Virus record (IMG/VR): IMGVR_UViG_3300027891_000004
Span: 32,001-96,000 of that record
From: a virus
Lineage: Duplodnaviria > Caudoviricetes
Reading direction: 5' to 3' (one strand)
Length of the DNA: 64,000 nucleotides
The notes beneath the pieces were generated by a model. That model ran no database searches and was not told where the DNA came from. It worked only from the letters and a program-made list of their open reading frames with translations. Positions 5,159 through 58,191 of this stretch are shown in pieces. The first letter of the stretch is position 1; every line of letters begins with the position of its first letter. A program made the translations under genes and the position numbers.

Positions 5159-5179
5159 TATTTTGATGATAGAACGGCA

Positions 5180-5407: not shown

Positions 5408-5426
5408 CCCCGCCACGTGGCGGGGT
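5407..5426. repeat. CCCGCCACGTGGCGGG palindrome, probable terminator of the tail operon
   Basis: 20-bp perfect palindrome 1 nt after the stop of 5428..5664. Confidence 0.85.
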
Positions 5427-5427
5427 T

Positions 5428-5664
5428 TCAACGTTTGCCGCCGCAACAGCCGACCAAGTGAGTGTAGACGGGCGACGAAACGGGCGGCCCGTTGTACGTC
5501 GAGTTGGCCACCGGCATTTTATCATAAACAGGCGGACTATGTTGCATCTGGGTATGGAAAAATTCCTTCTTCCGGAAGCTACCGCAGGTACGGCATTGTG
5601 CTATGTCAAGCCCAAGATTACATTTGGCGGTCTCCGCCATTCGGAAGTGTAGGCACGGTCGCAT
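5428..5664 (-). CDS. small Cys-rich protein at the end of the tail operon
   Basis: Starts 2 nt after the giant gene stop; C..H, CNLG, CRTC, GCCGG. Confidence 0.65.
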   Translation of the reverse strand: MRPCLHFRMAETAKCNLGLDIAQCRTCGSFRKKEFFHTQMQHSPPVYDKMPVANSTYNGPPVSSPVYTHLVGCCGGKR

Positions 5665-5666
5665 CG

Positions 5667-29937: not shown

Positions 29938-30450
29938 TTAGTGATAATCCGTAATTTCCTGTATTTCAATTTCTGTAACTTTCGACCAATCTAAATTACC
30001 GTTTGCATCTACGGGAATTGGATCATGCTTTGGCACAAAGATTAAACGCCACCCACCATGCAAAGCGCCAGCAAGTTGCCCTGCCCTATCGTCTTTTAAG
30101 CTGTGAAAATTACCTTTATTGTCACGAACTCCCCGCAATTCTTTACGCCCCTTCAATTCTTCAAGTGTTATAGCTCTTTCAAGTCTCTTTAATTGCTTTT
30201 CAAGCACAATATGATTTTTTGGATTTCCACCATCGCCTCCAAATTCGATATTTCCGGGCGTACATTCAGCTTCTACCTGAGGATTAGCGTAGGAAATGCC
30301 AACCATATTATCAACGGCGTCATCATTCCAAACCTTGCCGTCTGCCGACTGACATTCTTTTATGGTTTGGAACGACGCATTGCCGCCGATGCAACGACAA
30401 TCGCCAGAACCAGGCAGTTCGCTAAAACTGTTTACAACATTCATTTTCAT
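29938..30450 (-). CDS. type-B leader fused to a HigB/RelE-family toxin domain
   Basis: FHSLKDDRAGQLAGALHGGWRLIFVP...DW.KVTEIEIQEITDYH is a HigB signature; 48-aa extension VVNSFSEL...ASFQ...AVDN before MVGISYAN. Confidence 0.85.
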   Translation of the reverse strand: MKMNVVNSFSELPGSGDCRCIGGNASFQTIKECQSADGKVWNDDAVDNMVGISYANPQVEAECTPGNIEFGGDGGNPKNHIVLEKQLKRLERAITLEELKGRKELRGVRDNKGNFHSLKDDRAGQLAGALHGGWRLIFVPKHDPIPVDANGNLDWSKVTEIEIQEITDYH

Positions 30451-39644: not shown

Positions 39645-39683
39645 TTGCTAAGGGCTATCGGGGCGACGGTTCCAAATATGGCT
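39645..39683 (-). repeat. 39-bp copy of the 3' end of the Lar-like gene (40531-40569)
   Basis: 38/39 identical; encodes SHIWNRRPD(S/N)P-stop. Confidence 0.9.
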
Positions 39684-39692
39684 GCCATCCTC

Positions 39693-40058
39693 TTAATCTT
39701 TTCCTAAACTGTCATTATCATCCTGGATAATATCGGTTTTAATGTTGTGGATTGCCGTTCTGCCTTCCGGAGCGCATCGAGAACTGAACGCCTGTACAAT
39801 TTCTAAGCGAATGTAGCGGTATGGGCACATCTGTTCCGCTTCAAGTTCCGGCGGCATCAAAACATTTTCAACGTTGAATGCGGCTATGCGGTCGTTGTGT
39901 TTCACAAAATTGCGTATCGTTACCTGCAATTCGTCGATAACCAATTTGTCGCCCCGGACAAACATTTCAACAAACTCATCTATTGACCGGACATCCCAAA
40001 TCGTACAACCGGGTAGCGTCCAACCTCTGGGCGGCCTTATTGTTATTTTAATTTTCAT
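39693..40058 (-). CDS. leaderless partner of 40055..40474
   Basis: ATGA overlap with the leader gene. Confidence 0.65.
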   Translation of the reverse strand: MKIKITIRPPRGWTLPGCTIWDVRSIDEFVEMFVRGDKLVIDELQVTIRNFVKHNDRIAAFNVENVLMPPELEAEQMCPYRYIRLEIVQAFSSRCAPEGRTAIHNIKTDIIQDDNDSLGKD

Positions 40059-40474
40059 TGTGATCCGCCATATTTTTCTTTAAAATAATCATCGTATTGG
40101 ACAATATCTGATATTGTATAAACGCCCAATTCCATTAGCTCTTTTTTTCTATCTGCGTAATCATCTTTCCGTTTATCAATCATCGACATCATCGCCTTAT
40201 TAAGGTGCTGTTGAATTCTATCGCCGTCAGTTGGCATCCTTAAACGCCGCGATTCTTCGATAACTTCCTCTTCTAGCCCTAGAATAATATCTTTTTGTTT
40301 TTCCGCATCCCATTCGTTCCACGGTTGTGGTTTGCCTATAAACTCAGCATTATCAACCGTTGCGCCTTCGGTCGTGTTTTCCTCTTGAAACGCTGACATA
40401 TTGCCGCTACCACCGGCTTTGCCCGTTTCAAGCAATTCATTGAAACTACTCGCTACTCTCATTTTATGTTTCAT
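40055..40474 (-). CDS. type-B leader plus unknown helical cargo
   Basis: MRVASSFNELLETGKAGGSGNMSAFQ...TVDN. Confidence 0.8.
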   Translation of the reverse strand: MKHKMRVASSFNELLETGKAGGSGNMSAFQEENTTEGATVDNAEFIGKPQPWNEWDAEKQKDIILGLEEEVIEESRRLRMPTDGDRIQQHLNKAMMSMIDKRKDDYADRKKELMELGVYTISDIVQYDDYFKEKYGGSQ

Positions 40475-40533
40475 TCAAAAAAGTAACAAACGCAAACATC
40501 CGTAGTATGCCTGTTCCTATTATTTATCTGTTG

Positions 40534-40851
40534 CTAAGGGTTATCGGGGCGACGGTTCCAAATATGGCTCACGTACTGCAACACGTTTTTAATCGAAACT
40601 TCATTATCTGCAGCACAATCGTGGTATGTCCGTAACAAACAAGGAAAACAAGCAACGTGGAAGTAATGGGGGTCTGCGTTAGACGGCGTATAGCTGTAAA
40701 CAACATACACATCTGTTTTTCCGCATTTAGGACATGGCAGCAATTCGCTCTCTGTCTGTCGGATTAAACGCTTTAATTCATAAGCATCCTCCAAATCGTC
40801 CAAAGAGTATCGCAATTTTTCAGGAATATTTTGTTTTATTGTCGTTTTCAT
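40534..40851 (-). CDS. Lar-family (restriction alleviation-like) Zn-finger protein
   Basis: LLPCPKCG...V.C..C...WNRR. Confidence 0.8.
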   Translation of the reverse strand: MKTTIKQNIPEKLRYSLDDLEDAYELKRLIRQTESELLPCPKCGKTDVYVVYSYTPSNADPHYFHVACFPCLLRTYHDCAADNEVSIKNVLQYVSHIWNRRPDNP

Positions 40852-40869
40852 GTTTTTCTAACAACAGTG

Positions 40870-41199
40870 CTATTCAAACCAGCCGTGCCCGTATTTCCAT
40901 TTGCCAAAACCATGCGTATTCTTAAATTGATCCGCCTGTTCTCTTGTAATTGACCGATAGCCTTCAAGAAAAAACGGATTGCCTTCAGAACCCGGTTCTG
41001 TTACAACAATGTCATACCCATCTCTATCCTGCGCAATATACAGCGAAATATCATAAAAAGATACGGGAGATAAATCCTCAACGGGCTTTTCTCCGGTCGG
41101 CATATTCTCCACTGAAACAGATTGAAACGCTGACATATTGCAGCTGCCACCGGCATTGCCCGTTTCAAGCAATTCATTGAAACTACCCACTACTCGCAT
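40870..41199 (-). CDS. type-B leader plus cargo X
   Basis: MRVVGSFNELLETGNAGGSCNMSAFQSVSVEN-MPT...; cargo similar to those of 50525 and 47795. Confidence 0.8.
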   Translation of the reverse strand: MRVVGSFNELLETGNAGGSCNMSAFQSVSVENMPTGEKPVEDLSPVSFYDISLYIAQDRDGYDIVVTEPGSEGNPFFLEGYRSITREQADQFKNTHGFGKWKYGHGWFE

Positions 41200-41255
41200 A
41201 ATATGTCCCTTTCAAAAAGAGTAACAAACGCAAACGTCTACGGTATGCCGGATTT

Positions 41256-42365
41256 TCATTCATTTCCCGCCTTGAAATTATACAACGGTTTTATTATTTT
41301 GACAACTTCCATCGTATCGCGGCTGTTCTCGATAATCTCGTTCATCGGCTTGTACGCCTGCGGTGCCTCGTCAATAGTCGCCCGGTTCACGGTGGACGAA
41401 CAGATTCCTTTCATCGATTTCTCGTATTCGATTAGCGTGATCTTTTCCTTCGCCTCTTTGCGGCTCATTACACGCCCGGCACCGTGCGGAGCCGAAAAGT
41501 TCCAATTGGCGTTCCCCTTCCCTACGCAAAGGAGGCTACCGTCCCGCATATTCATAGGCACCAATATACAGTCGCCGCTTCGGGCCGATACCGCACCTTT
41601 TCGTAAGATCATCGCATCCAAATCAATGTAATTGTGTACGACGGAAAACGTATCGACGATCTTGAACTTCGCCTGTTTTGATATGTCGCGGGCAATGGCC
41701 CGTCGGTTTAAGTCGGCGTATTGTTGGACGATGCCCATATCATGTAAATAATCGGACATCGGGGAGCCTTCCAAGTAGGCCAGTGCCCTATCGTCGCCTT
41801 CCTTTGTCCGACCCAACGTGTCGGCGGCCACGTTCTGATAATAGTCGCAAACCTGTTTGCCCAGATTGCGACTTCCGGAATGGACAATCAAATAGAGCTG
41901 TCCGTCATCGTCTTGCCCCAATTCAATAAAATGGTTCCCTCCGCCGAGCGTGCCCATTGAATGGGACGCACGGTGTAAATCGACGTGTTTTACGCATTTC
42001 AATTCAAATAAATCAATATCCTCGTTGAAATGATGCGGATCGTGTCGGGTGTTAAAACCAGCGGGTATGTTTTTTATAATCGCCTTGTCGAGTTGGTTTG
42101 GATCGACCCGTTTCTCCTTTATCAACGCGACGAACATCCCGCAACAACCGTCCGTCCCCACTAAATTGGGGACAATCTTATCCGTAATCGTCATGGTCAT
42201 TCCGACCGTACCGACCTGCCCGCTGTGGACATCGGGCATTACGCGGATTTGGCTTCCTTCGACAAATGGCTGGTTCAGGATATGCCGAATCTGCGCAATT
42301 GCGCCGGGTTCGGTGGTATCCGTGAATATCTTTGCCGTATTGTATGTTCCTTGTAATTCAATCAT
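41256..42365 (-). CDS. rtcB: RtcB-family RNA ligase
   Basis: MPDVHSG, GTLGGGNHFIE, HSGSR, HNY, RKGA, SAPHGAGR, DEAPQAYK. Confidence 0.97.
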   Translation of the reverse strand: MIELQGTYNTAKIFTDTTEPGAIAQIRHILNQPFVEGSQIRVMPDVHSGQVGTVGMTMTITDKIVPNLVGTDGCCGMFVALIKEKRVDPNQLDKAIIKNIPAGFNTRHDPHHFNEDIDLFELKCVKHVDLHRASHSMGTLGGGNHFIELGQDDDGQLYLIVHSGSRNLGKQVCDYYQNVAADTLGRTKEGDDRALAYLEGSPMSDYLHDMGIVQQYADLNRRAIARDISKQAKFKIVDTFSVVHNYIDLDAMILRKGAVSARSGDCILVPMNMRDGSLLCVGKGNANWNFSAPHGAGRVMSRKEAKEKITLIEYEKSMKGICSSTVNRATIDEAPQAYKPMNEIIENSRDTMEVVKIIKPLYNFKAGNE

Positions 42366-42552
42366 TGTTTTTCATTCTGTGCTTGTCGCCTTTCGGTTTT
42401 GGGACGCTCTTGTTCGGTTCCGTTTTGTTCGTTTATCCTCATGCGTGCCTGCACCGCCACATCGTGGCGAATGTCCGGTCCGCTTTTTGACCTTTATAAT
42501 GAGTATGCAAGTTTTCTTCTTCTTCTTTTTCATTTTTATTTTTTTTTCAAAA

Positions 42553-42625
42553 TAGGCGATGCAGGGATCGAACCTGCGACCTACGGATTATGAGTCCGCA
42601 GCTCTAACCGCTGAGCTAATCGCCT
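42553..42625 (-). tRNA. tRNA with CAU anticodon (elongator Met or Ile2), no encoded CCA
   Basis: AGGCGAT/ATCGCCT acceptor stem, GCTC..GAGC D stem, GCGGA-CTCATAA-TCCGT anticodon arm, GCAGG-TTCGATC-CCTGC T arm. Confidence 0.95.
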
Positions 42626-42748
42626 TTTTCCAGTTGCTTCTTTGCTTGTTGTCGTTCGCGTTTCTTCTGCGGACGGTAAACAGACTGTCTCGTTTCTTTT
42701 GACCAACGCTTTTTCCAGTACGATTTAGTAGCGTCATTTCCGTATGGC

Positions 42749-43126
42749 CTAATTTTTGTTCGTAATCTCATTCTTCGCTATCTCGAATTTTTTGAAGTCT
42801 TGCGCGTCAAACAACAATTCCAAGTCCCACCAATAAAATTCAAAAACATACCCGCATTCAAACCGTGATGTTTGCGCCTTATAGTATTCCACATTTTGAA
42901 TGTTTTGTTGATTGGCGTTTTGAAAAAACGGGCAGTAAGAACGCGGTATCCGGTAAGTTGCAAATGATGTACTTATAACAAAATCAGTATCCGTTACTGA
43001 ATGTACTTTTATCAAGGCATTTCGACGGTTGTTTTTCCCTCTGATTTTTTTTCTCGACGGGAAAAGCCTGTCGGGGGCGTTTTTAATCCGCTTCTTTATG
43101 CGCGTTATCTTTCGTCGATTGTTCAT
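42749..43126 (-). CDS. DUF2442-like antitoxin
   Basis: YRIPRSYCPFFQNANQQNIQNVE...FYWWDLE fits the DUF2442 pattern P...P.L.NA...NVE...W..LD. Confidence 0.65.
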   Translation of the reverse strand: MNNRRKITRIKKRIKNAPDRLFPSRKKIRGKNNRRNALIKVHSVTDTDFVISTSFATYRIPRSYCPFFQNANQQNIQNVEYYKAQTSRFECGYVFEFYWWDLELLFDAQDFKKFEIAKNEITNKN

Positions 43127-43131
43127 TTTTA

Positions 43132-43263
43132 CTAAACTAAAGGAAGGGAATGATCTGGGTTGTTTTCGTTCCAATTTTCAATGTATTTATTCGGGTTATT
43201 CGCCATGTCCATTTGAACCGCCTTAATGATGTCTTTATCCACTCTTGTGGGTTCCATCAACAT
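43132..43263 (-). pseudogene. C-terminal fragment of a DUF4160-like toxin (43 codons)
   Basis: VDKDIIKAVQMDMANNPNKYIENWNE aligns with IPAPIVSDIKKHIKKNRNGFVKDWQD of 46949..47386; ends 5 nt before the DUF2442-like start. Confidence 0.55.
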
Positions 43264-43404
43264 GCGGCTACTTAAAAGCAATCGAGTTAATCATCTTTTA
43301 CGTGCCTGGGATTCGCGGTCCGCCAACGGTCAGCCGCCTTTTCGTACTTTTTAACAAATTTTCGTCAAAACGCAACCGATCAAAACTGCCCGACGCAACA
43401 AAAC

Positions 43405-43420
43405 CCCGCCACGTGGCGGG
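43405..43420 (-). terminator. CCCGCCACGTGGCGGG palindrome terminator
   Basis: 4 nt after the stop of 43425..43895; followed by GTTTTG on the minus strand. Confidence 0.8.
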
Positions 43421-43424
43421 ATCG

Positions 43425-43895
43425 TTACGCCCAATAGGTCAAACTTGTTCCAGGTATCCGTCGCAGGTCCCAATTTTTCGTCGGCCGATCAAACAAATCT
43501 TCGACCTTGTTACATTGCGGGCAGGAATCGTCTTCGCAGGGCCAGCAATGCCCGCAAATCTCACAATGGTTATGCAGACATTCCGGGCATGTCAGCCATT
43601 CGTCTTCCGGTTCAAAAGCATATCTACAATTTTTGCACATCATTTTAACGTCGATACACTCGGACGTATGCGGCTTTGGTTTTTCGGCAACTATTACAAT
43701 CATGTCGATTCTCCTTTTATTATTTTGATTTCTTTTCGTATATTCATTGTTTGAAACAATCGGCACAGAGCAGGTAAGGGGGTCGGGGCAACTACAAAGA
43801 CCGGGCAGGGCTTCGCACCAGGCGCACCGGTAAGTATCATCGCATCGAACATATCTAGGCATCTGCGTCTCCTTTCTGGTTTTGTATTTATGCAA
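43425..43895 (-). CDS. Cys-rich zinc-ribbon protein
   Basis: Multiple CxxC pairs. Confidence 0.65.
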   Translation of the reverse strand: MHKYKTRKETQMPRYVRCDDTYRCAWCEALPGLCSCPDPLTCSVPIVSNNEYTKRNQNNKRRIDMIVIVAEKPKPHTSECIDVKMMCKNCRYAFEPEDEWLTCPECLHNHCEICGHCWPCEDDSCPQCNKVEDLFDRPTKNWDLRRIPGTSLTYWA

Positions 43896-44103
43896 ACAAT
43901 TTCACGCGGGGAACGCAAACAACGCGGCCTTCCGGGCCTGGGACGATCCTCAATTTATCCTTCGATACCCACCCAAATCCGCGTATGTAAATATGAAGGG
44001 TCGTCATATCGTCGATAACGCTAAACGTATCAAACGGTATGTGATTCTTTGTTTTTTCGGTTATGAGTATCTCTTTCCCGATTTCAAACGTTTCTCTTTT
44101 CAT
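43888..44103 (-). CDS. hypothetical protein (start MKRETF)
   Basis: AGGAG RBS upstream of the internal ATG of track ORF 43888..44304. Confidence 0.5.
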   Translation of the reverse strand: MKRETFEIGKEILITEKTKNHIPFDTFSVIDDMTTLHIYIRGFGWVSKDKLRIVPGPEGRVVCVPRVKLFA

Positions 44104-44143
44104 TTCTATTTCTCCTATTTGAAAATGTGCGGTGTAACAACGT

Positions 44144-44374
44144 TCAGTTAAAAACAATAACATCCCATTCCGACGTATTGTATTTATTGGCCTTCTTTTC
44201 AAGCCGGATAACGCCGTCTTCAACAAGTTGCGAAATATGCGTTTTGAACTGGCGCCGCGTCCAACCGAAGTAAGCCATACCCAAGAGGTAAACGTCGTAT
44301 TCAAACAGGGCGAATCCGCCGTTTGAAAGATGTTCGCAAGCCTTTACGAACTGCGTCAAAAGTGTGTTTTGCAT
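44144..44374 (-). CDS. hypothetical protein, possible winged helix
   Basis: AGGAG RBS; F...ISQLVEDGVIRL. Confidence 0.55.
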   Translation of the reverse strand: MQNTLLTQFVKACEHLSNGGFALFEYDVYLLGMAYFGWTRRQFKTHISQLVEDGVIRLEKKANKYNTSEWDVIVFN

Positions 44375-44494
44375 CGTCCCGATCTCCTATTGAAAAAGGT
44401 CTTGAACTTGCGGGGATCGTTCCCCGCACCTGTTTTTCAATAGATTCGTAGAGCAAGTTTTCAGGCAACTATGCAAAACATTACAAAGAAGTTT

Positions 44495-44734
44495 TTAATC
44501 AATAAGCAACTTTATCTTATCAGCAACTTCCTTTCCGTAATGTTCGGCCAACAGCGAATACATTGAATGCCCGGCTTCCTCATAGTTACCGTGTTGTTCA
44601 TGTAGCCATTTATCGAACTTGTACGGGTCTAAAAACGGTCTGCCCGTCAGCCACGAGAGCATACCGTCAAGGAAATTGCATATTTGCATATCGAACGTAT
44701 CCCTAAAAAATTTGATCGCTTCCTGGTGAGACAT
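44495..44734 (-). CDS. hypothetical phage protein
   Basis: 79-aa ORF downstream of the promoter motif at 44792. Confidence 0.65.
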   Translation of the reverse strand: MSHQEAIKFFRDTFDMQICNFLDGMLSWLTGRPFLDPYKFDKWLHEQHGNYEEAGHSMYSLLAEHYGKEVADKIKLLID

Positions 44735-44814
44735 ACGCCAATTCCCGTTCTAAAAAAAATACAAGTTAAATCAAAAAAAAACTTCCAACTAAGTATGCCG
44801 GATTATAACGCGAA

Positions 44815-45576
44815 TCAATTTGTTTTTTCTTTTTCGGCGTTCTTTTCGGCAAGCCACGCGAAGTATTCATCGGGGCTACTGAACTGTATTTGGCCTGCCT
44901 TCGGGGTGGGGAGCGGGGCCGAGTTTGCGTCTTTCCTGGTCTTGTTCGCCAGCTTATTCAATTCTTCAAGATGCGCTATTTCTTCGGGCAACAAGCGTAG
45001 CATCCAATGTATTTGATAACTCGTCAAATCAAGAATTTGGTCAACCGTCCAACCGTACTTTTCGGCCAACCCTTTGAAGATACGGGCCACGTTTTCGTCA
45101 GGAGTCGATTCGACACGCGGACTATCACTCTCAGGCTGCGGCGGATCGGGCGGGAGCGGGCAAAAAGTAGCTTGTTGCATCTCCGCGAGGAGCAACCGCG
45201 AGGTTTCGGAGATGCCGTTCGGAAAAAACAGCTTTTTTAGCTTTGCATCGGCCCACGCTGGTGCGTCGCGGATAAGCAACTTAATAAAACGAACCAAATA
45301 ATCAATATGAGAATATAAAAACTCATGGCCGATACCTACTTGGAAATCAAAGTCTTCGATTTTATTCAACGCAAGATCAACAAACTCGGCACGTTCGCTT
45401 TCGGGCACCAACTTAATCTGATCGTCAAACTGTTTGGCATACTTGTATTTAAGCCACGTATTGAAATCAATAAGATCGCGTTGTCGCAAAGGGTATACCC
45501 ATAGCGTATGCCGGTCCAATTCGTAGGGGACCGGCGATTGCGACATAGCCGATTTGTGCGTGTACGGTAAGATCAT
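44815..45576 (-). CDS. tail assembly chaperone, gpGT-like
   Basis: N-terminal half paralogous to 38983..39633; C-terminal LAEKYGWTVDQILDLTSYQI resembles gpT/gpE' segments. Confidence 0.7.
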   Translation of the reverse strand: MILPYTHKSAMSQSPVPYELDRHTLWVYPLRQRDLIDFNTWLKYKYAKQFDDQIKLVPESERAEFVDLALNKIEDFDFQVGIGHEFLYSHIDYLVRFIKLLIRDAPAWADAKLKKLFFPNGISETSRLLLAEMQQATFCPLPPDPPQPESDSPRVESTPDENVARIFKGLAEKYGWTVDQILDLTSYQIHWMLRLLPEEIAHLEELNKLANKTRKDANSAPLPTPKAGQIQFSSPDEYFAWLAEKNAEKEKTN

Positions 45577-45639
45577 GTGAATTGAAAACGATTCATTTAC
45601 CGTATGTATGCCAGAACGCGCCAGAAATTCAAGAACAAA

Positions 45640-46089
45640 TTAGCATCTTCGCCGGGGGAAACGCGCCGGGACCGCCTGCAGGGTAGGGACAAACGATTGT
45701 CGGCCCTGCAATGCCAATTCCGTATCCGCCATGCGCTGGGCAAGGCAGTTATTCGGATCGAGCAGCATCGCCTGCTGCCCGTGCAAAGAACCTCGAAGGA
45801 ACGCATCGGTAGTCATAGCATACGCCTCGCTGGCCGCGCCGACCGATTTTGAGGTAACAACGCCGGTAGATACCTGGAACTGGTGCGCCGCTAGATAAAG
45901 CGTAATCGCCTCGATCTGCTCAGGCGTATAATTTGCCATACACCCGTTCAAAATACTTGTCTGGACCATAAGCGACGCGGTTTTGATAGCCATATCCAAC
46001 GTCGCGTCGGCGGTCGGCGGTATGTTCGGGTACACCTCCCGTACTTTTCCGTGCGTTGTGTAGGGCGGGGTCATGTCTTTCGGTGCCAT
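45640..46089 (-). CDS. head-tail adaptor (DUF4054 / SPP1 gp15-like)
   Basis: YLAAH...VTSKSVGAASEAY...HGQQAMLLDP. Confidence 0.85.
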   Translation of the reverse strand: MAPKDMTPPYTTHGKVREVYPNIPPTADATLDMAIKTASLMVQTSILNGCMANYTPEQIEAITLYLAAHQFQVSTGVVTSKSVGAASEAYAMTTDAFLRGSLHGQQAMLLDPNNCLAQRMADTELALQGRQSFVPTLQAVPARFPRRRC

Positions 46090-46119
46090 TGCTGCTATAT
46101 TGTATGATTGGTTATTGTC

Positions 46120-46482
46120 CTATTTTTTCCGTTTCAATGCCTCGCGCACTTGGCTATCCTGTTCGTCGGCGATTTCGTAGGCAACGGTATCGTTCGCGTT
46201 GTGCGCATCCCGCAGCTGAATCCTAAAAAAATTGACGAGTTTATTCAAATCATCAACGCTATAGGCGGCGTACTCTTTGATGTTTTGTTCTCTTTCGCTT
46301 ACCAATTTCTTCAGGTCCTCGGAACCGACGGCACCCTGAAAACTAAGCGTCCAGTCCAATTTTCCTTTTGGTTCCCGCATCGAGGGTAGCGGACCAACCG
46401 GGACGGGCATCGCCGCGTTAAATGAGGCATTAGCGCATTGTTGCAAATGCTCAAACTGTGATATGTCTGCCAATTTTTTCAT
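46120..46482 (-). CDS. type-A leader plus unknown helical cargo
   Basis: MKKLADISQFEHLQQCANASFN. Confidence 0.8.
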   Translation of the reverse strand: MKKLADISQFEHLQQCANASFNAAMPVPVGPLPSMREPKGKLDWTLSFQGAVGSEDLKKLVSEREQNIKEYAAYSVDDLNKLVNFFRIQLRDAHNANDTVAYEIADEQDSQVREALKRKK

Positions 46483-46512
46483 TGTGATTCCACTAAAAAT
46501 TACGCACGTCCG

Positions 46513-46947
46513 TCATATAACAAATGAATCTTGGCTGTCGTTCCAATGCCGCCTATCAATATAATTTACGGATAATTCCAAACCTGCGATAGTACAAACA
46601 AAGTGGTGTCCGCAATGATCCGTATGCGTATCCCAATGATAACCAAGCGATATTAAATCATCAACCAGGGCCATTTCAAATTCCAACAATTTGTGTTTTG
46701 GTCGTCGCCATAGTTTAGAAAGTAGCACAAAACCTGGATTTCCACGTCGTCCCAACGCGGCATAGTATAGCCCTTTAGTTAGCCAACATATAGGATTTAA
46801 TTTGTTCAAAACATACGGCAATTTGAAATTGAATTCTAAACCGTAGTCTAAAACCACAAATCGAAAAAACAAACCTAAAAACGCCAACTTAATTGCGACG
46901 TTAATCACGCTATGCCTACTGTACCACCATTCTTTTAAACTGTCCAT
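46513..46947 (-). CDS. leaderless partner (putative antitoxin) of the DUF4160 cargo
   Basis: ATG 1 nt after the toxin stop (TAG-A-ATG). Confidence 0.65.
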   Translation of the reverse strand: MDSLKEWWYSRHSVINVAIKLAFLGLFFRFVVLDYGLEFNFKLPYVLNKLNPICWLTKGLYYAALGRRGNPGFVLLSKLWRRPKHKLLEFEMALVDDLISLGYHWDTHTDHCGHHFVCTIAGLELSVNYIDRRHWNDSQDSFVI

Positions 46948-46948
46948 T

Positions 46949-47386
46949 CTAATCCTCTCGTAACAGCTGTTGCCTTGCCTGCTCATCTTGCCAATCTTTT
47001 ACAAAACCATTTCTGTTCTTTTTAATGTGTTTTTTGATGTCGCTTACAATAGGGGCAGGTATGCCATTATTTTCGGCCAACTCGACAACGGCCTGACCAT
47101 TGTATTCAAGCCAAAATTTTGCTTTTCCTTCCGGCGTATAGACGTGAACGTGCATAGGTTCTGTTCTGCCGCCATGCTGTTCTTCGTCAACGTAAACAGA
47201 AAATGAAAAACCACGAAATGGCGGCGTATTCTTTGATTTGGGCGACATATTGCCGACAACGGCACTTTGAAATGCACCTGACAACTTGGAAACTGCCGCA
47301 CCATCATTAAACATGGACATTTCGCTTCGAGGCATATCCCAGTTCCCCAACGATTCAAACATTGATATATCAGCCAACCTTTCCAT
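46949..47386 (-). CDS. type-A leader fused to a DUF4160 (HicA-like/DhiT) toxin domain
   Basis: GFSFSVY..E.H...EPMHVHV....GKAKFWL...W; leader MERLADISMFESLG...MSMFN...AFQ...VVGN. Confidence 0.85.
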   Translation of the reverse strand: MERLADISMFESLGNWDMPRSEMSMFNDGAAVSKLSGAFQSAVVGNMSPKSKNTPPFRGFSFSVYVDEEQHGGRTEPMHVHVYTPEGKAKFWLEYNGQAVVELAENNGIPAPIVSDIKKHIKKNRNGFVKDWQDEQARQQLLRED

Positions 47387-47418
47387 TATTCTATCTTTCT
47401 TCGTGATTCGGCGAGTTG

Positions 47419-47802
47419 TTACTCTTGGAGATACCTACGATTCCATGATTCGCATATACGTCTTAGAGATTCTTTGAAATCTTCTTCATCGTCTTCCGCA
47501 TACCATGTTACTGTTTGCATACCGCATTCTGGATTGCTGCAACTAGCGTATAATCCATGAGGATTTATTGTAAATTCCACGCCGTAAGTGCCATCTTCTT
47601 TTTTCACGCTTCGTCCACCATTTTTTCCGGGATAAAAGGCGTATTCAATACGAGGCTTTTCCTGCCCACAATTTGCGCACGGTAACAATGAAACCTCAAA
47701 CGGTTCTATTAACGCTAGAATTTCGGCTTCATTTTCCAACATGCAGGCATAAAAACAAGCGGCAGAACCGGGCTTGAATTCTGGGGTCAATTTACTATTC
47801 AC
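47419..47802 (-). CDS. Lar-family Zn-finger protein
   Basis: LLPCANCG...C...CG...WNRR; paralog of 50108 and 40534. Confidence 0.8.
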   Translation of the reverse strand: MNSKLTPEFKPGSAACFYACMLENEAEILALIEPFEVSLLPCANCGQEKPRIEYAFYPGKNGGRSVKKEDGTYGVEFTINPHGLYASCSNPECGMQTVTWYAEDDEEDFKESLRRICESWNRRYLQE

Positions 47803-48199
47803 AGCTCACCTCTTCATTTTCAAATTTTACCAAACCTTCTATACTGTCGCCCCAAGTAGAACCGGAACGAACGCGGTTTATGTATTGTAACGCCTCTGCC
47901 CGGTCCGTAAAAGGCGATCCTTGTACAACAAATGAATCTTCCATCGGGTTATCTGGGTTTGTCGCAATTATATCCAAACCTTTGCCTTCCGGATTTTTTC
48001 GTAACGAAAATTTATACTGTTTTCCGGTCATCTTGCTTTTAGGCTTACTAAAATTTGGCGACATACTATCTACGATGGCATCTTGAAAAATCTCCGACAG
48101 GCGAGCAACCGCACCACTATTAAACATGGACATTTCGCTTCGAGGCATATCCTCGCTCCCCAACGATTCAAACATTGATATATCTGCCAACTTTTCCAT
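47795..48199 (-). CDS. type-A leader plus cargo X
   Basis: MEKLADISMFESLGSEDMPRSEMSMFN...IFQ; YKFSL...GLDIIATNPD. Confidence 0.8.
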   Translation of the reverse strand: MEKLADISMFESLGSEDMPRSEMSMFNSGAVARLSEIFQDAIVDSMSPNFSKPKSKMTGKQYKFSLRKNPEGKGLDIIATNPDNPMEDSFVVQGSPFTDRAEALQYINRVRSGSTWGDSIEGLVKFENEEVSCE

Positions 48200-48237
48200 A
48201 GCAGTATGCAAAAAAAGAAAAAATACTGATCAAAATT

Positions 48238-48768
48238 TTATTTCAATCCGGCCCGCACATTGTTGTCCATATCTTCAATATCGTTTTTGAATGTTTCGTA
48301 TGCCGCATCGAGGTCTTTGTCGCCGTTCTGCAATTGATCGAAAATTCTGTATTGTTTATCCGCCTCTTGCGACAACTTGGTATGCGAGTGCAAAAACGTA
48401 CCCAACGAATCCAACATCCCCTGCTCGCCCTGGGCTACTTTTGCCAGTGTCTGTATCTCTTTTTTCGGTATACTGGGAAACTGTTTGACGACTGATTTAA
48501 GCGTCCGTTTACCCCCGTTCAATTCACGCAGGGCCGAATAGACCTTTTTGAATTCGGGTCCCGTCACGCCCCGGCTCTCAAACTGTCCCATAAACGCCTC
48601 TTTTTGCGCCCGGAAATCATCGCCCGCCTGTGCCGCCTCGTAATGGAACGGCTTTACTTTTTCAACGAACCCGTCCGATAATTGCGAGTTGAAACACGAC
48701 ATGGGCGACATCATGCGTTGATTCGCGTGTGCCTGCAACGATTCAAATTGTGAAATATCTGCCTGCAT
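48238..48768 (-). CDS. type-A leader plus unknown helical cargo
   Basis: MQADISQFESLQAHANQRMMSPMSCFN. Confidence 0.8.
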   Translation of the reverse strand: MQADISQFESLQAHANQRMMSPMSCFNSQLSDGFVEKVKPFHYEAAQAGDDFRAQKEAFMGQFESRGVTGPEFKKVYSALRELNGGKRTLKSVVKQFPSIPKKEIQTLAKVAQGEQGMLDSLGTFLHSHTKLSQEADKQYRIFDQLQNGDKDLDAAYETFKNDIEDMDNNVRAGLK

Positions 48769-48772
48769 TGTC

Positions 48773-49291
48773 TTACTTTTGTTGTGCGTAGTATTGCATC
48801 GCTTCCTCTTTGGTAGCGAATTTTGGCATTTCTTTTTTCGGTTGCGCCGTCCCGCCGGGCAATTCTACGGGTTTGAAAGCGTCGCCGCCCAACAGGTACG
48901 TATTGCCCAAAAACGACTTGGCTATCGCCGCCTGTTTTTTCATCAAGCGGTCATGCGCTTTCGGATCGTCTTTAACCTGTTCGCCTTCCTGTCGTATCTC
49001 GCGGCTAACTTCGCCGACCCCGGCTTTCATAGTATCGACCGCGTTATCGATTTCCGGGCGGATCGATTTGTATGTTTGCTGCGCCTGCCGCACTTCCTGC
49101 TCGTTTCGGGAATGCCAAATATCCTGCTGCGTTTCGTAGACTCCGCGCAAACCGCCTTTCAATATCTCATAGGCGCGGTCCATCGATTGGAGCGTCTGGT
49201 CCAATTCGGGCGAATTGAAGCATGACATAGCAGATACCCCGCCACGTGGCGGGGTATCCAATAATTCGTTAAATGAATTTACAACTCGCAT
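48773..49291 (-). CDS. type-B leader plus unknown helical cargo
   Basis: MRVVNSFNELLDTPPRGGVSAMSCFN; ATG 2 nt after the upstream stop. Confidence 0.8.
   Translation of the reverse strand: MRVVNSFNELLDTPPRGGVSAMSCFNSPELDQTLQSMDRAYEILKGGLRGVYETQQDIWHSRNEQEVRQAQQTYKSIRPEIDNAVDTMKAGVGEVSREIRQEGEQVKDDPKAHDRLMKKQAAIAKSFLGNTYLLGGDAFKPVELPGGTAQPKKEMPKFATKEEAMQYYAQQK
49233..49258. repeat. 26-bp palindrome inside leader coding sequence
   Basis: GATACCCCGCCACGTGGCGGGGTATC. Confidence 0.9.
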
Positions 49292-49293
49292 GG

Positions 49294-49641
49294 TTATCTT
49301 TGGGCTATTGCCTGTTCTATCCGATCCAAACGAGTATTTGTATCGCTTTGCAACCGGAGTAGTTTTGCATCTACGTTTGCAAAACCGTTCTTTGTGGTGA
49401 TTTCCAAATTGTCCATTCGGCTTTCTAATTTTCCAAACCGTTCGTCTATTTTTCCAAATCGCTCGTCCACCTGCTTCCTCCACTCAACCAATGGAAGATT
49501 ACTCTGTATAGGCGTAGCTGAACTTATGGGACTTATGCCACTCGGCGCATTTTGCACAGGATTAAACGCCCCCAAACCGGAAACAGGGGCACCCACGGCT
49601 CCCAACGATTCAAACATACCAATATCAGCGAGCTTTTCCAT
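49294..49641 (-). CDS. type-A leader plus coiled-coil cargo
   Basis: MEKLADIGMFESLG...LGAFNPVQN; paralog of 51261. Confidence 0.8.
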   Translation of the reverse strand: MEKLADIGMFESLGAVGAPVSGLGAFNPVQNAPSGISPISSATPIQSNLPLVEWRKQVDERFGKIDERFGKLESRMDNLEITTKNGFANVDAKLLRLQSDTNTRLDRIEQAIAQR

Positions 49642-49646
49642 GTTTA

Positions 49647-50069
49647 TCACTTTCGTAAAAGTTGTTCCCGGTACGCTTGGTAGCTTTCGGGCGTTAGGTT
49701 CAGGTAACGGAGCATTTCCTGCGAAGGCGTCTCCGTTTTTCTAATCGCATCCTGTACTTGCAACATCCCCTTTTCGCGTGAGGCTCGTTCGGCGCCCCAA
49801 TCGTCATACGGATCATCCTGCCGGTCCCCGGCGGCGTCGCCCGTAGCGAAATCGGGGTAGACCCGCTTGATCGTTTTGGCTACATCGCGTGGGTGCATCC
49901 GACCCCCGTCGTCCAAATAAGAGAGCATATCGGGCAGGGTAGTGCCCTGGAACGCGGCGTTTACGCTCACGGCGCGCAGGCTACGGTCATCAAACGTAAA
50001 CATAGCGGGTATGCCAAATGCCGCGTTCTGTTGCGTCTGTAGCTGCGAAAATAGTGGGATACTGTCCAT
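49647..50069 (-). CDS. type-C leader plus unknown cargo
   Basis: First 41 aa identical to 50525..50887 (MDSIPLFSQLQ...VNAAFQ). Confidence 0.8.
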   Translation of the reverse strand: MDSIPLFSQLQTQQNAAFGIPAMFTFDDRSLRAVSVNAAFQGTTLPDMLSYLDDGGRMHPRDVAKTIKRVYPDFATGDAAGDRQDDPYDDWGAERASREKGMLQVQDAIRKTETPSQEMLRYLNLTPESYQAYREQLLRK

Positions 50070-50107
50070 TTCAATTTATAGGCGTTGACGTTACTACAAC
50101 AGTATGA

Positions 50108-50506
50108 CTACTTACCTGTCCTTTTATTCCATGCGCTGCAGACGCGCCTTAACGCTTCTACAAAATCGTCTTCGGTATCTTCGGCATTCCACACTCTTGT
50201 TTGGATTCGGCAATCTTCAATATCTGAGGGCGGATCAGTAGCAGCATTTCGGCAACACACAACATACAACTCATGCGGGCATTCCTTCATGGGGATTTCG
50301 CCGTTTGGTTGCAGCTGAGTTGGGAACATATTACCGGGGCGGTACATGTAATGTACATGCGGACGATCATTTCCGCAATGCGCACAGGGCAGCAAGGTGG
50401 CATCAGCCTCGTTAATGAGGGTAGCTATTTCGGACTCGTTTTCAAGCTCGTACAAAAAACAACGAGTACGGCCATCACAATTGCCTGTTTTTAGTTTTGT
50501 ATTCAT
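50108..50506 (-). CDS. Lar-family Zn-finger protein
   Basis: LLPCAHCG...PH.LY..C...C...WNKR; GAGG RBS. Confidence 0.8.
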   Translation of the reverse strand: MNTKLKTGNCDGRTRCFLYELENESEIATLINEADATLLPCAHCGNDRPHVHYMYRPGNMFPTQLQPNGEIPMKECPHELYVVCCRNAATDPPSDIEDCRIQTRVWNAEDTEDDFVEALRRVCSAWNKRTGK

Positions 50507-50524
50507 TATTGCACCTCATAAAAG

Positions 50525-50887
50525 CTAAAATAAGTACCCCCACTTATCAAACTTATGCGTATTTTTGAACGCGATTGCTTCTTGAGCCGTTATATTATCC
50601 ATATCTTCGATATACGCTGTTTGTTTGCCGCCATCGGGGTCTGAAACGGCAATCCCACACCTGTCCGTTCCTTGAACAGGGTGTAGCGAAAAAACGTAAT
50701 GTCTGTCTGGACGCAATTCTGATAAAGAGATTAAGCCGCTCGGAAAGTTTTCTACGGAAACGTCTTGGAACGCGGCGTTTACGCTCACGGCGCGCAGGCT
50801 ACGGTCATCAAACGTAAACATAGCGGGTATGCCAAATGCCGCGTTCTGCTGCGTCTGCAACTGCGAAAAAAGAGGGATAGAATCCAT
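50525..50887 (-). CDS. type-C leader plus cargo X
   Basis: Leader followed by SVEN-FPSG...YVFSL...FKNTHKFDKW. Confidence 0.8.
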   Translation of the reverse strand: MDSIPLFSQLQTQQNAAFGIPAMFTFDDRSLRAVSVNAAFQDVSVENFPSGLISLSELRPDRHYVFSLHPVQGTDRCGIAVSDPDGGKQTAYIEDMDNITAQEAIAFKNTHKFDKWGYLF

Positions 50888-50898
50888 ACTGATTTCCT

Positions 50899-51258
50899 TT
50901 ACAATCGTCTCAAAATGCCCTTGCGAACTGCGTCGTTTATTTTACTCTTTACTTCACGTTCCAATTGGGCCATACTGATTTCATCGTCTGGCCGACGCGC
51001 CTTCACGCCTTCCAATTTGAACCGCATCTTTTCGCCCACCCGGTTCATCACAAGTGTGCCGATAGTGCGTCGTAGATTCTCCTGTGTCGCGAGCGGTATT
51101 TTACGATTCTGTCGTTCTCTGGGGTCTCGCCGGTCCGTAACGCCCTTCTTGCGAAGTTCGGCAAGCACTTCATTTTTTACAAACTGCTCTACTTTATTCG
51201 TTACTCGTTGTCGGACCGCCTTGTGTATAGCGGCTTCTATCGTCTTTTGTAGACTCAT
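50899..51258 (-). CDS. basic hypothetical protein (leaderless)
   Basis: Arg/Lys-rich, starts 2 nt after the upstream stop. Confidence 0.65.
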   Translation of the reverse strand: MSLQKTIEAAIHKAVRQRVTNKVEQFVKNEVLAELRKKGVTDRRDPRERQNRKIPLATQENLRRTIGTLVMNRVGEKMRFKLEGVKARRPDDEISMAQLEREVKSKINDAVRKGILRRL

Positions 51259-51260
51259 AG

Positions 51261-51605
51261 CTATCTTTGCATAAGAGCTTGTTTGATACTTGCCACATCC
51301 TGCTCCAAACGATCAAATCGCGTATTTGTGTCGTTATGCAACCGTTCTATTTTTGCGTCTACGTTTGCGAAACCGTTCTTTGTAGCAATTTCCAAATTAT
51401 CAATTCGGGCTTCAAGGCCATCGACCCGCTTGCTCAAATTCTGGCCCCATTGTGGCATAGGAAGGTTACCCTGGACGGACGCGGGGGAACCGACGGGGTT
51501 CACGCCCGGCGCGTTCTCAATCGTATTGAACGCGCCCAAATTCGACAATCCGACGTTTCCGGTTCCAAGCGATTCAAACATCCCAATATCTGCGAGTTTT
51601 TCCAT
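51261..51605 (-). CDS. type-A leader plus coiled-coil cargo
   Basis: MEKLADIGMFESLG...LGAFNTIEN; paralog of 49294. Confidence 0.8.
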   Translation of the reverse strand: MEKLADIGMFESLGTGNVGLSNLGAFNTIENAPGVNPVGSPASVQGNLPMPQWGQNLSKRVDGLEARIDNLEIATKNGFANVDAKIERLHNDTNTRFDRLEQDVASIKQALMQR

Positions 51606-51634
51606 AATTATCACTTCCGTAAAAGTTGTATTTG

Positions 51635-53183: not shown

Positions 53184-54878
53184 TTAAGCCGCCATTTTGA
53201 ATTCATCGCCATCTTCTTCCAAACGCGACGCTTCGTCGGCGACGATAAGTTTCTTCAATTCCGGCGACATGTCCAACAAAAACGGGTACCGGGACGCCAG
53301 CGAATGGAGCTGCGCAAGGTAGACACGTTTCATATCGTCCGACGATTCGCCCAGGTACATCGCCATAGCGTTCCGCGTCTCGGCGAATACCTCGTTCATC
53401 GCCTTCGTAAACGCGGTATCTACGCTTTTTCCGCTTATCGCGTCCGCCCCGTCATCGGTAGTTGACTGGGCGATCCGCGTAGCATCGGGCAACGAATCGG
53501 CTTTGGAATCCCCGTACTTTTTAATATGGGACAACACGGCGGCCTGCGCCGCCTTCAATTCCACGTCAAGGTTTTCCAACTCACGCAAGTCGGCGGGATC
53601 GAGCGGTTTCTTAGCCTTGAGCAATTTTGCGTTCTTTTCCTCCAACTCCGCGATCCGTGTCCGAATGTCTACTGCAATAGCACGCAACCGCTTGCGCTCC
53701 GCATTCTTTTTTTCAACCTCTTCACTATCGAACGAACCCTTCGGTCGCCCGGTCGAGGCCGACTCCCACAACCCGTCCTCAGTCTGCCGGAACTTAAACC
53801 CGCCACGCGCGTCGTTCAGAAGGTTCAGAATCAACGCCTCATTGAATGAGGTAACGAGTACCTGTGCCGCGTTTCTTAATTTCTTAACCGTACTTACGAA
53901 CAGGTCTTCACCCTCTTCCAAATCGTCGGAGGCCACGATTTCGGGGTTATCCTGCATCTCCTCACGAGCGGGCACCTCCTCAAGAACAATTTCGGGCGTG
54001 TCCGGCATAGCTTCGGACAAACTTGCCACTTTCGCGGGACCTGTCGGCGGCTCAATTGTGATTTTGTAACCCTCGGCTGTTGTAAACGATTGCACGCCGG
54101 GCATGACCGGGCCCGCGCCCATTGATTCCAAAGGCGGCGCGACGGCTACTTTTATTTCTGTATGCGCCGTGCCGTGCGCATTCGCGTTTTTCGCATCGGT
54201 GTGTCCCTGTTCTTCTCTAAAAAGTCGTGTAGATTCCATAACCGGCGACCCCGCAAGATAATCATTGTTGATGTACGTAGTAATGATATTCAACGTTTCT
54301 CCCGCTTTCATTTCTTTTCGTTCGTTAATGAGCAACCCGGCCCCATCCGATAGGCTACAAGCGCCCTGTTTACGGGGCAGGATAGCGAGATGGTCGGCCC
54401 GGATGTTGATGATACGCCCGATATACGGTTCGCTATTCCATACGCCCTCATCCATGATGAGTTCGGAGAACAGACCGGTCGATATTTCCATCGGGAGCCG
54501 GTGTTTGATATGCTCAAGCAGGGTAGGGCACTTCTCCTCGGCCTTGCGTCTATCGATCCACGCTTCGGCCTTGAGCTTACCGTCCACAAAATGCGTATTC
54601 ATAATCATCCCGACCGCCTGCCGCTTGTAGACTTCGAGATCGGTCGCCGTATCGCCCCGGAACGGATGTTCGATTACGACGGGCTTGAAATTCCACATTT
54701 TGGGCGTTTTTGCCAACTCTTCGGTATCGTAATAAACGGGCCCCTGCGAGCCGGTATGGACCCCTTCGAGGATCATCGTCATCGGGGCGACGACGTATTC
54801 ACGGTCGTCAAGCGTTTCGTACCGAACCGTCGGGTCGATAGTTACGTTCCAAATGGTTTCTATTTTGTTGCGTGGCAT
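53184..54878 (-). CDS. DUF2213-type prohead maturation protease with long C-terminal region
   Basis: EGVH.G..G...Y..EEL...WN.KPVVIEHP, EISTG, DHLAILP...GACS..DG.GL. Confidence 0.9.
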   Translation of the reverse strand: MPRNKIETIWNVTIDPTVRYETLDDREYVVAPMTMILEGVHTGSQGPVYYDTEELAKTPKMWNFKPVVIEHPFRGDTATDLEVYKRQAVGMIMNTHFVDGKLKAEAWIDRRKAEEKCPTLLEHIKHRLPMEISTGLFSELIMDEGVWNSEPYIGRIINIRADHLAILPRKQGACSLSDGAGLLINERKEMKAGETLNIITTYINNDYLAGSPVMESTRLFREEQGHTDAKNANAHGTAHTEIKVAVAPPLESMGAGPVMPGVQSFTTAEGYKITIEPPTGPAKVASLSEAMPDTPEIVLEEVPAREEMQDNPEIVASDDLEEGEDLFVSTVKKLRNAAQVLVTSFNEALILNLLNDARGGFKFRQTEDGLWESASTGRPKGSFDSEEVEKKNAERKRLRAIAVDIRTRIAELEEKNAKLLKAKKPLDPADLRELENLDVELKAAQAAVLSHIKKYGDSKADSLPDATRIAQSTTDDGADAISGKSVDTAFTKAMNEVFAETRNAMAMYLGESSDDMKRVYLAQLHSLASRYPFLLDMSPELKKLIVADEASRLEEDGDEFKMAA

Positions 54879-56461: not shown

Positions 56462-57016
56462 TCATTTATCTGCGACCGCCTGCGAGTAATCGCGGTCCGC
56501 GAACAGTTCGGCAAGACCCGAAATCTGCGACAACCGCAGTACCTCGTCCGGCTCCATGCCCAACTCACGGCCGATCTTTTTATCCGACCAGTTCCGACGC
56601 TTCAACTCAACCACAATATCGCTCATAGAAGACACCAGATGAACGCCGCGTGCGCGGTTATGCCGTATGGTCGCCGCGATACGATCACAGCGATCCGTGC
56701 GCGATTCGTTGATAACAACAACCGGTAGATGCGATAGTTTCAATTTGTCTTTGCCGATAATATGACGATGGAAACCGTCCACTACCTCAAACAAATCGCC
56801 ATTAAAAAACGTTACGATAGGCTGCGTGAAACCGTCCGCCCTGATCGATAGTTCAAGAAGTTTCAATTCGGGCGTAGCGACCTTATTGGGGTTGTAGTCG
56901 TTCGCAACGACCAACTCGGAGGGCACCCAATAGACCTTTGAAACGGGGTGCTCGCCTGCCCACGCGGGCGCGTGTTCATACGCCGAAAAATCGCGTGTAT
57001 CACCTACAGCCCCCAT
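56462..57016 (-). CDS. ibrB: IbrB/YbdM-like ParB N-terminal domain protein
   Basis: ANDYNPNKVA.PE..LL..SI..DGFTQPIV, VVDGFHR, ATIRHNRARG. Confidence 0.92.
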   Translation of the reverse strand: MGAVGDTRDFSAYEHAPAWAGEHPVSKVYWVPSELVVANDYNPNKVATPELKLLELSIRADGFTQPIVTFFNGDLFEVVDGFHRHIIGKDKLKLSHLPVVVINESRTDRCDRIAATIRHNRARGVHLVSSMSDIVVELKRRNWSDKKIGRELGMEPDEVLRLSQISGLAELFADRDYSQAVADK

Positions 57017-58191
57017 GCGGCCCTCCGCTTTTTCATTAAAATTTTGTACTTTTCGTAGGCGTCCGATTTCGTGGGCGAAAACGAAAGCCCCTTGCACCAA
57101 TAGTCGTTCCGCAACAGCGCCCGGCATATCCGACGCCAGCTGGGTTTACGATCCGAAACGGCATTTTCTTGTTTAAGCGGCAACTCATCGGGTATCTCCG
57201 CGTACCCGCGATCTCGCCACCATTTCAAAAACACAGCAATTTTGTTCTCGTAATGTTCGCAAAGATGGCCCGGCATGGAATCGAGCAGCAACCGTGCGAA
57301 CGCCTGCCACGTGATGCCCGCCGGTTTGGAAACCTTTATATTACCCAATATATTGCCCGACGTTTGCGAATAGAGCGAGCCCGCGTTCGCACCGTTTACG
57401 CGGGCAACGACGCGGGCCCATGTCTCCGGCTCGATCCGGTGGAACAGCCACAAACCTTTCCGCTGATCGTCGCCGTAAGGCTGACAAATCCGCATCTGAT
57501 GTATCGAAAGGCCCGCCTTGTGCATCAGATCGTACAACAGGTTATAGGGCAGCCGCGTCTTACCGAAAAAAGTCCATATATCTTCCGTTTTCCAATCGAA
57601 GATCGGGTACGCATTGTAGACGCCGCCCGGCATACGGGTCGTCCACGCCTTATTTGCGAACCGTTCTTTGCTCTCGCTCCAAATGGTACGCCGCCGGTTC
57701 AAACTCTCCGCCATCCGGATACCGACAAGGCAACACGTAGAAACGCCGCCACCGTACCATACGCCAAACTGCGGCACAAACTCTTCAAACTCCATCCCGT
57801 ACCGGAAAAAGGGGAAGTCGGCACCCGTCTTCACTGGATAATTGGGCAACGGGCGTACCCAATCTTTTTCACGACCCGGCTCCCAACAAATCCAACGCGG
57901 CTCAAACTGTGAAACGGCGTTACGCAAAAGGATAGGAAGCGTACACCAAAAAGGCTCGATATGCTCCGCGTACAAAGAAAACAGCTCGGAAACATGCGCA
58001 ATCGTATGCGCGTACTGGGCCTCCAAATCAATAAAGAACAAGCCGACTTTTCGACCGCGACGGGCCGCTTCTGCCAACGCAAGATGCGTCATCACCGACG
58101 AATCCTTCCCGCCCGAGAAAGATACGCAAACGCGGTCAAAACTATCGAAGCAAAACGCGATCCGCTCTTGGGCGGCTTCAAGCACATTCAT
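57004..58191 (-). CDS. ibrA: IbrA/YbdN-like PAPS-reductase-family protein (DUF3440)
   Basis: VSFSGGKDS PP-loop, IDLEAQY, GIR..ESLNR, YPIFDW..EDIW, QMRICQPYGDDQRKGL, PSWRRIC..LL.NDYWC. Confidence 0.95.
   Translation of the reverse strand: MNVLEAAQERIAFCFDSFDRVCVSFSGGKDSSVMTHLALAEAARRGRKVGLFFIDLEAQYAHTIAHVSELFSLYAEHIEPFWCTLPILLRNAVSQFEPRWICWEPGREKDWVRPLPNYPVKTGADFPFFRYGMEFEEFVPQFGVWYGGGVSTCCLVGIRMAESLNRRRTIWSESKERFANKAWTTRMPGGVYNAYPIFDWKTEDIWTFFGKTRLPYNLLYDLMHKAGLSIHQMRICQPYGDDQRKGLWLFHRIEPETWARVVARVNGANAGSLYSQTSGNILGNIKVSKPAGITWQAFARLLLDSMPGHLCEHYENKIAVFLKWWRDRGYAEIPDELPLKQENAVSDRKPSWRRICRALLRNDYWCKGLSFSPTKSDAYEKYKILMKKRRAAWGL

Follow-up and report, generated by a model that had tools for sequence, protein, structure and literature searches.

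What function is served by a pair of small genes that a single phage genome carries three times, and are the two products partners or merely neighbours? The pair occurs within a 64,000-nt window, corresponding to bases 32001–96000 of a 167,820-bp virus record, which derives from an uncultured phage in a termite-gut metagenome (linear genome, CheckV completeness 94%). One gene encodes X, an N-terminal leader coupled to a small cargo, and the other encodes a leaderless protein with a zinc ribbon resembling that of the restriction alleviation protein Lar (the Lar-like protein). The three cassettes, designated c40, c47 and c50 from their X genes at 40870, 47795 and 50525 of the window, are found within the head module of the phage. 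An earlier sequence-only reading had described six open reading frames (ORFs) arranged in this manner; all six are present where it placed them, each X gene is directly followed by a leaderless Lar-like gene, and profile searches of the whole genome returned three X genes, three Lar-like genes and no others. The interpretation favoured here, with a probability of roughly 40%, is that X is loaded into the capsid and injected as an effector, and that the Lar-like protein remains in the producing cell and binds its cognate X there, acting as a neutraliser or as a chaperone for loading.

All six cassette ORFs lie on the minus strand, with every X gene adjacent to and co-oriented with its Lar-like gene. 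In c40, X (40870–41199) consists of a leader of flavour C (41122–41199) and a cargo (40873–41121), and an 18-nt spacer separates it from the Lar-like gene (40534–40851), which encodes a short form of 105 aa without the ribbon insertion. The same 18-nt spacing is present in c50, where X (50525–50887) consists of a flavour B leader (50766–50887) and a cargo (50528–50764), and the Lar-like gene (50108–50506) encodes 132 aa. The X gene of c47 (ORF 47795–48211, probable ATG at 48199) carries a flavour A leader and a cargo at 47798–48082, and its end is overlapped by 8 nt by the Lar-like gene (47419–47802), which starts with GTG and encodes 127 aa. Logan unitigs of the source run end exactly at the repeated leaders, and the three unitigs containing the cassettes (766, 839 and 795 nt) showed depths of 41.5, 49.4 and 44.2, compared to 38–42 for their flanks. 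Given that the depths of cassettes and flanks are approximately equal, the tandem layout is real and single-copy rather than the result of an assembly merging alleles, and it is present in essentially every copy of the genome.

The leader is found on approximately 17–20 otherwise unrelated ORFs, which cluster on the minus strand downstream of the DUF2213 protease gene. It exists in three flavours with a common pattern, F-x-x-L followed by M-S-x-F-N or A-F-Q. All five known X proteins possess the leader, and in each of them a V-x-N site is located directly after it. Conversely, the leader is present on none of 32 clusters of Lar-like proteins, which have a short conserved N-terminus in common, and the open frame of the Lar-like genes extends only 1–3 codons upstream, leaving no room for one.

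For each X leader, the best DNA match in the genome is the leader of the next gene downstream, at 87–93% identity. In c40, the upstream element and leader C of X (41122–41249) match the equivalent segment of a gene termed Y (40385–40511) at 87% over 128 nt. In c47, leader A of X (48109–48199) matches leader A of a DUF4160 gene (47296–47386) at 92% over 91 nt, and in c50, leader B of X (50766–50887) matches leader B of the gene at 49647–50069 (49948–50069) at 93% over 122 nt, with all of these segments on the minus strand. For flavours B and C, the flanking pairs are the only matches genome-wide. The DNA homology of the repeats ends at the junction of leader and cargo, and no DNA similarity was detected among the three cassette interiors. 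Because the interiors are dissimilar and the repeats are 87–93% identical, the flanking repeats are much younger than the split between the cassettes, which argues for separate insertions or local gene conversion and not for a recent triplication.

Downstream of c40, the intergenic region after Y and its partner gene Z contains a 39-nt relic of a Lar-like 3’ end (39645–39683, minus strand), comprising the last 10 codons and the stop, that is 97% identical to the c40 original at 40531–40569. Y (40055–40474, minus strand) is a leader-C cargo gene without a family match, and its slot has the same flanks as that of X in c40. Z (39693–40058, minus strand) is the untagged, that is leaderless, partner of Y; the two are joined by an ATGA start/stop overlap and no family was found for Z. 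As the Y–Z pair is positioned between an upstream-plus-leader repeat and the relic of a Lar-like 3’ end, it is an allelic alternative to X and the Lar-like gene in the same type of slot. Together, the leader repeats, the non-similar interiors and the relic indicate that the cassettes sit in exchangeable slots. The gene that follows c47 is arranged in a comparable way, as a DUF4160 cargo gene with leader A (46949–47386, minus strand; PF13711, E 1.5e-10, above the cut-off) and an untagged partner (46513–46986, minus strand) for which no family was found. It had been argued that recognisable toxin/antitoxin pairs share the cassette layout, and this is borne out only in part: it holds for the leader-tagged DUF4160 gene with its untagged partner, and a HigB-like gene at 29938–30450 produced no Pfam match at E <= 0.01.

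Other members of the leader array showed further duplication. The leader-A genes at 49294–49650 and 51261–51614 are full-length paralogues (115 nt at 80%) with similar coiled-coil cargo, and the latter is followed by an untagged, basic ORF of 119 aa (50899–51258), possibly another pair of cargo and partner. In contigs of the source run, a position at approximately 44433–44460 is joined to two leader-A starts (49609 and 51605), the short side of each joint measuring 26–31 nt; this position is probably a further copy of the upstream element that acts as an assembly repeat.

X itself is a rapidly changing protein. The cargos of c50 and c40 are 38% identical and conform to the motif that had been drawn up for all three copies, whereas the c47 cargo is much more diverged, at 19–27% identity to the other two. 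When 1.84 billion representative proteins were searched exhaustively with an X profile, only two outside relatives, P0013 and P0014, were identified, so that five X proteins are known, which divide into X-a (c50, c40 and P0013) and X-b (c47 and P0014). Comparison of the X-a and X-b profiles gave a probability of 93% (E 2.9e-7). Matches of the X profile in giant proteins were rejected, being fibronectin type III repeats in which approximately 30 columns were matched (Y-x-F-x-L ... G). The only residues conserved in all five sequences are P, Y, S, A and W, invariant residues of a catalytic type being absent, and the copies in the window are acidic, with isoelectric points of 4.6–5.0. X therefore does not resemble an enzyme toxin, and a binding role appears to suit it better than a catalytic one. 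A charge check of X and the Lar-like protein found no pattern of a basic toxin and an acidic antidote. Structure prediction of the X cargo produced a confident model (predicted local distance difference test score, pLDDT, of 81.2) with the order strand-strand-strand-helix-strand. No known fold was matched above chance by Foldseek against the PDB and BFVD (E <= 0.001) or by a full VIA scan, with the best match having a Z of 4.0 and a root-mean-square deviation (rmsd) of 3.0 over 61 aligned residues, and there was no family match in Pfam, PHROGs, NCBIfam or PADLOC.

The Lar-like proteins of the window are 29–43% identical to one another and possess an invariant C-x2-C, two further cysteines and an end of the form W-N-(K/R)-R. 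The motif proposed for them from the sequence is accurate for the first C-x2-C; the second knuckle takes that form only in the copy at 40534, and is C-x4-C at 47419 and C-x14-C at 50108. A profile search using four Lar-like proteins defined a subfamily of 32 clusters, all metagenomic and nearly all unnamed. Its members begin with an N-terminal helix and end with a C-terminal one; between the two they have the ribbon, into which a stretch of variable length is inserted, together with an invariant His and an acidic D-x-E-x-D row. Residues C41, C44, C84, C99, W126 and N127 show complete or almost complete conservation. R129 is nearly invariant, as is the Glu of the acidic row, in which both Asp residues are invariant. 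The model of the c50 copy (pLDDT 91.9) is an antiparallel sheet with two helices packed on top. Fold searches gave no match beyond chance, the best being to ribosome hibernation factors (Z 5.9, rmsd 3.8, 87 residues aligned), and a sequence-profile search of the PDB with the Lar-like alignment returned nothing. Kinship to the zinc-ribbon antitoxin MqsA was also considered and was backed by no search result.

The relationship to Lar is real but distant. Alignment of the 32-sequence subfamily with Escherichia coli RalR (formerly Lar) in hhalign gave a probability of 82.6% (E 9.6e-6), and 11 of the 32 members match PF14354 at E <= 0.01 (best 1.7e-8), a family in which RalR itself scores 53.5 bits, confirming its membership. 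In a protein atlas, the clusters nearest to the c50 copy are named Lar family (0.94), and the template modelling score to a PF14354 cluster is 0.75 by row. Conversely, the three window copies fall below the curated thresholds, scoring 25.3 bits (c40), 18.1 bits and no hit on PF14354 (cut-off 28.6), and on TIGR03655 only the c40 copy registers (26.5 bits; cut-off 39.6). As judged from these comparisons, the subfamily is a divergent branch of PF14354 and true, if remote, kin of Lar/RalR. The Lar of the Rac prophage is RalR, a 64-aa protein that has been reported to be a non-specific DNase toxin with a small RNA as its antidote (PMC4041452). Therefore Lar kinship alone does not imply anti-restriction. 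The proteins described here resemble RalR in having a four-Cys zinc ribbon and then a C-terminal helix ending in W-N-(K/R)-R. They differ in being longer (105–132 aa), with an N-terminal helix and an insertion of up to approximately 30 residues in the ribbon, in the added invariant His and D-x-E-x-D row, in their sub-cut-off scores, and in having a protein gene for a partner rather than an antisense RNA. Two distinct members of the subfamily, P0025 and P0046, both have a 4,935-nt JGI contig as their source, and multi-copy Lar-like arrangements may recur in other phages.

Adjacency of the two genes is conserved in a second phage. The X-b homologue P0014 is encoded at 4996–5364 of JGI contig Ga0099364_10013274 (L001), where a gene for a 132-aa Lar-like homologue (5357–5755) overlaps it by 8 nt. 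The neighbours on this contig are a NUMOD/HNH homing endonuclease, a DUF4259 gene, two ordinary Lar-domain genes and unknowns, and do not constitute a head module. X and the Lar-like gene are thus adjacent in four of four examined cases, from two phages and two genomic contexts, with a start/stop overlap in two. Furthermore, P0013 (X) and P0032 (Lar-like) each derive from an ENA contig of 41,198 nt. The expectation that X homologues elsewhere would be linked to Lar-like genes is therefore borne out, in a small sample. No further relatives were found in IMG/VR (queried with the protease, P0013, P0014, the Lar-like alignment and P0036) or in GTDB genome contigs scanned with the Lar-like alignment, and word-index searches with single X or single Lar-like sequences retrieved only the source genome. 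No close isolated phage was found, as megablast of the region matched only a tRNA, and neither X nor the Lar-like protein had a tblastn hit among isolated phages.

Two other features of the L001 contig were observed. Its ends (1–379 and 10881–11063) are inverted copies encoding the same peptide on opposite strands; the contig either possesses true terminal inverted repeats or was folded back on itself during assembly. At 7185–8080, a protein with a canonical Lar domain (31.5 bits on PF14354) and the product of the following ORF have in common a C-terminal motif of the type K-P-K-W-T-x-x-T-P-T-E-x-G-L-Y, suggesting that Lar domains are the basis of a second modular family.

According to the favoured reading, mature X (~75–90 aa) would be loaded into the capsid via the common N-terminal leader, which would be removed, and would probably be ejected into the next host with the DNA, as the internal proteins of phage T4 are, there to exert an effect on that host. 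The Lar-like protein would be produced from the same message, often by coupled translation, and would bind X and stay in the producing cell, where it may neutralise X until packaging (immunity) or hold X ready for loading (chaperone or adaptor). Cargo and partner would be swapped as one cassette in leader-defined slots through recombination at the leader DNA. The remainder of the array is consistent with this, in that the DUF4160 gene and Y are also followed by untagged partners.

The closest working model is provided by the T4 internal proteins Ip1–3, which have only a packaging leader in common, are injected as anti-restriction proteins and are encoded in a hypervariable hotspot (PMC12373910). 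Both systems consist of small, unrelated or fast-diverging proteins sharing an N-terminal leader, with a variable hotspot in the head region and several paralogous or alternative cargos per phage. The leader here is longer (26–43 residues compared to approximately 10), and the protease is of the DUF2213 type and not gp21. Several cargos here, X among them, are also accompanied by an untagged partner gene; the ip genes of T4 have no such companion, and it is this gene that is new relative to T4. A second comparison is offered by CdiA-CT/CdiI and Rhs-CT/RhsI, in which a constant delivery part is fused to swappable cargos, a small cognate gene comes next, and recombination within the constant part exchanges the cargos and leaves relics. 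The cassettes described here similarly have a variable cargo followed by a small cognate gene, an in-frame delivery part, exchange at the constant part and relics; they differ in that delivery would be by a phage capsid, in that no toxin domain is recognised in X, and in that the partner family is conserved and not hypervariable. A broader version of the favoured reading, in which the array as a whole would be a capsid-delivered polymorphic effector system of phage, with tagged effectors injected alongside the DNA, untagged cognate partners that would protect or prepare them in the producing cell, and cassettes exchanged from phage to phage at leader DNA in the manner of contact-dependent inhibition (CDI)/Rhs tips, is rather doubtful.

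A number of observations weigh against X being an injected effector with the Lar-like protein as its binder. Capsid loading, leader cleavage, injection and binding between the two proteins are all inferred. X, being acidic to neutral and with five invariant residues, does not resemble an enzyme toxin, and if it were a harmless defence inhibitor, as T4 Ip1–3 are, it would need no neutraliser. The invariant His and D-x-E-x-D row may point to an activity of the Lar-like protein of its own. For approximately 27 of the Lar-like clusters, no X relative could be detected in the protein library. If the main task of a protein were to fit a partner that changes quickly, the two should diverge together, yet the Lar-like proteins are more conserved than X (pairwise identities mostly 39–47% and 19–49%, respectively), and the two sets of identities are uncorrelated (Spearman 0.27, n = 10 pairs). 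Complex prediction of the cognate c50 pair, with alignments for both proteins, scored 0.00 in both runs and gave no verdict, which counts neither for nor against binding.

The same data have to be weighed for three other explanations. If X and the Lar-like protein had independent functions and were linked only as one mobile cassette, X would be an internal head protein and the Lar-like protein a late restriction-alleviation or modification-enhancing protein in the producing cell. The lack of correlation between their identities and the many Lar-like clusters without an X relative would then be expected, as would the two additional, free-standing Lar-domain genes on L001. Enhancement of modification late in infection, as known for lambda Ral and Rac Lar, would protect progeny DNA. 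This explanation is nonetheless unlikely given that the pair is adjacent in every examined case, across two phages and two contexts, with overlapping start and stop in two of them. Alternatively, the pair may form a two-part anti-restriction system; the sequence-only reading had suggested either this or a toxin-immunity module, diversified into three specificities. The Lar-like protein would then be the effector acting on type I restriction-modification, X would be a leader-bearing adaptor carrying it into the capsid, and the three copies would address different restriction families. A likeness is offered by the Dar anti-restriction proteins of phage P1, which enter the head in an order set by their dependence on one another; they are large, and are not known to be related in sequence to the proteins described here. 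A further precedent for injection is T4 Ip1–3 (PMC12373910). In addition to its kinship with Lar/RalR, the Lar-like protein is conserved above X and fairly evenly across its family, which fits a conserved target, and coupled translation fits a 1:1 complex. Set against these are scores below the curated thresholds of both Lar models and the greater length of the protein, which is double that of Lar owing to an insertion and an extra helix at the N-terminus, and we consider this explanation improbable as well.

The remaining explanation reverses the roles: the Lar-like protein would be a nuclease toxin of the RalR type, inhibited or regulated by X at the protein level. The DNase toxicity reported for RalR (PMC4041452) and the subfamily's invariant His and acidic row, with two invariant Asp and a near-invariant Glu, are in keeping with such a role. 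The antidote of RalR is, however, a small RNA and not a protein (PMC4041452), the leader is on X and not on the supposed toxin, and there is no nuclease-like fold match, the best (Z 5.9 to hibernation factors) being in the chance range. This arrangement is very improbable.

The surroundings of the cassettes are those of a head module. The protease at the head of the leader array (53184–54878, minus strand) is a head maturation protease of the DUF2213 type (PF09979, phrog_530), with no match to the T4 gp21 family listed, and the major capsid protein (DUF6260, phrog_771) is encoded at 59873–61024. The interval between these two genes (57004–59729) contains two genes, a PAPS-reductase-like gene (phrog_2302, E 7.7e-83) and one encoding a 513-aa HNH/homing-endonuclease-like protein. 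An RtcB-type RNA ligase gene (41256–42625; phrog_1075, E 9.6e-129) and a tRNA-Met gene are situated between c40 and the remainder of the leader array, such that an RNA repair gene adjoins candidate injected effectors. A Cys-rich protein of 156 aa with several C-x2-C pairs and no family match is encoded at 43425–43895. Promoter and terminator scans gave results near chance level, and the sequencing runs listed as containing the phage included no RNA run.

Candidate injected effectors of a phage can be recognised in its sequence by their leader tag, and those of T4 proved to be specific anti-defence proteins. The X family consists of five known sequences without a known fold, and so any activity demonstrated for it would be new. 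With cargos and untagged partners in repeat-flanked, exchangeable slots, the phage capsid would follow the effector-plus-immunity logic so far seen in the polymorphic toxins of bacteria, and, if the array is such a polymorphic effector system, a zinc ribbon of the Lar family would have a protein-binding role, in immunity or as an adaptor, that is undescribed for that family. If X is an injected effector bound by its Lar-like neighbour, the poorly understood Lar/RalR family would gain a testable protein partner.

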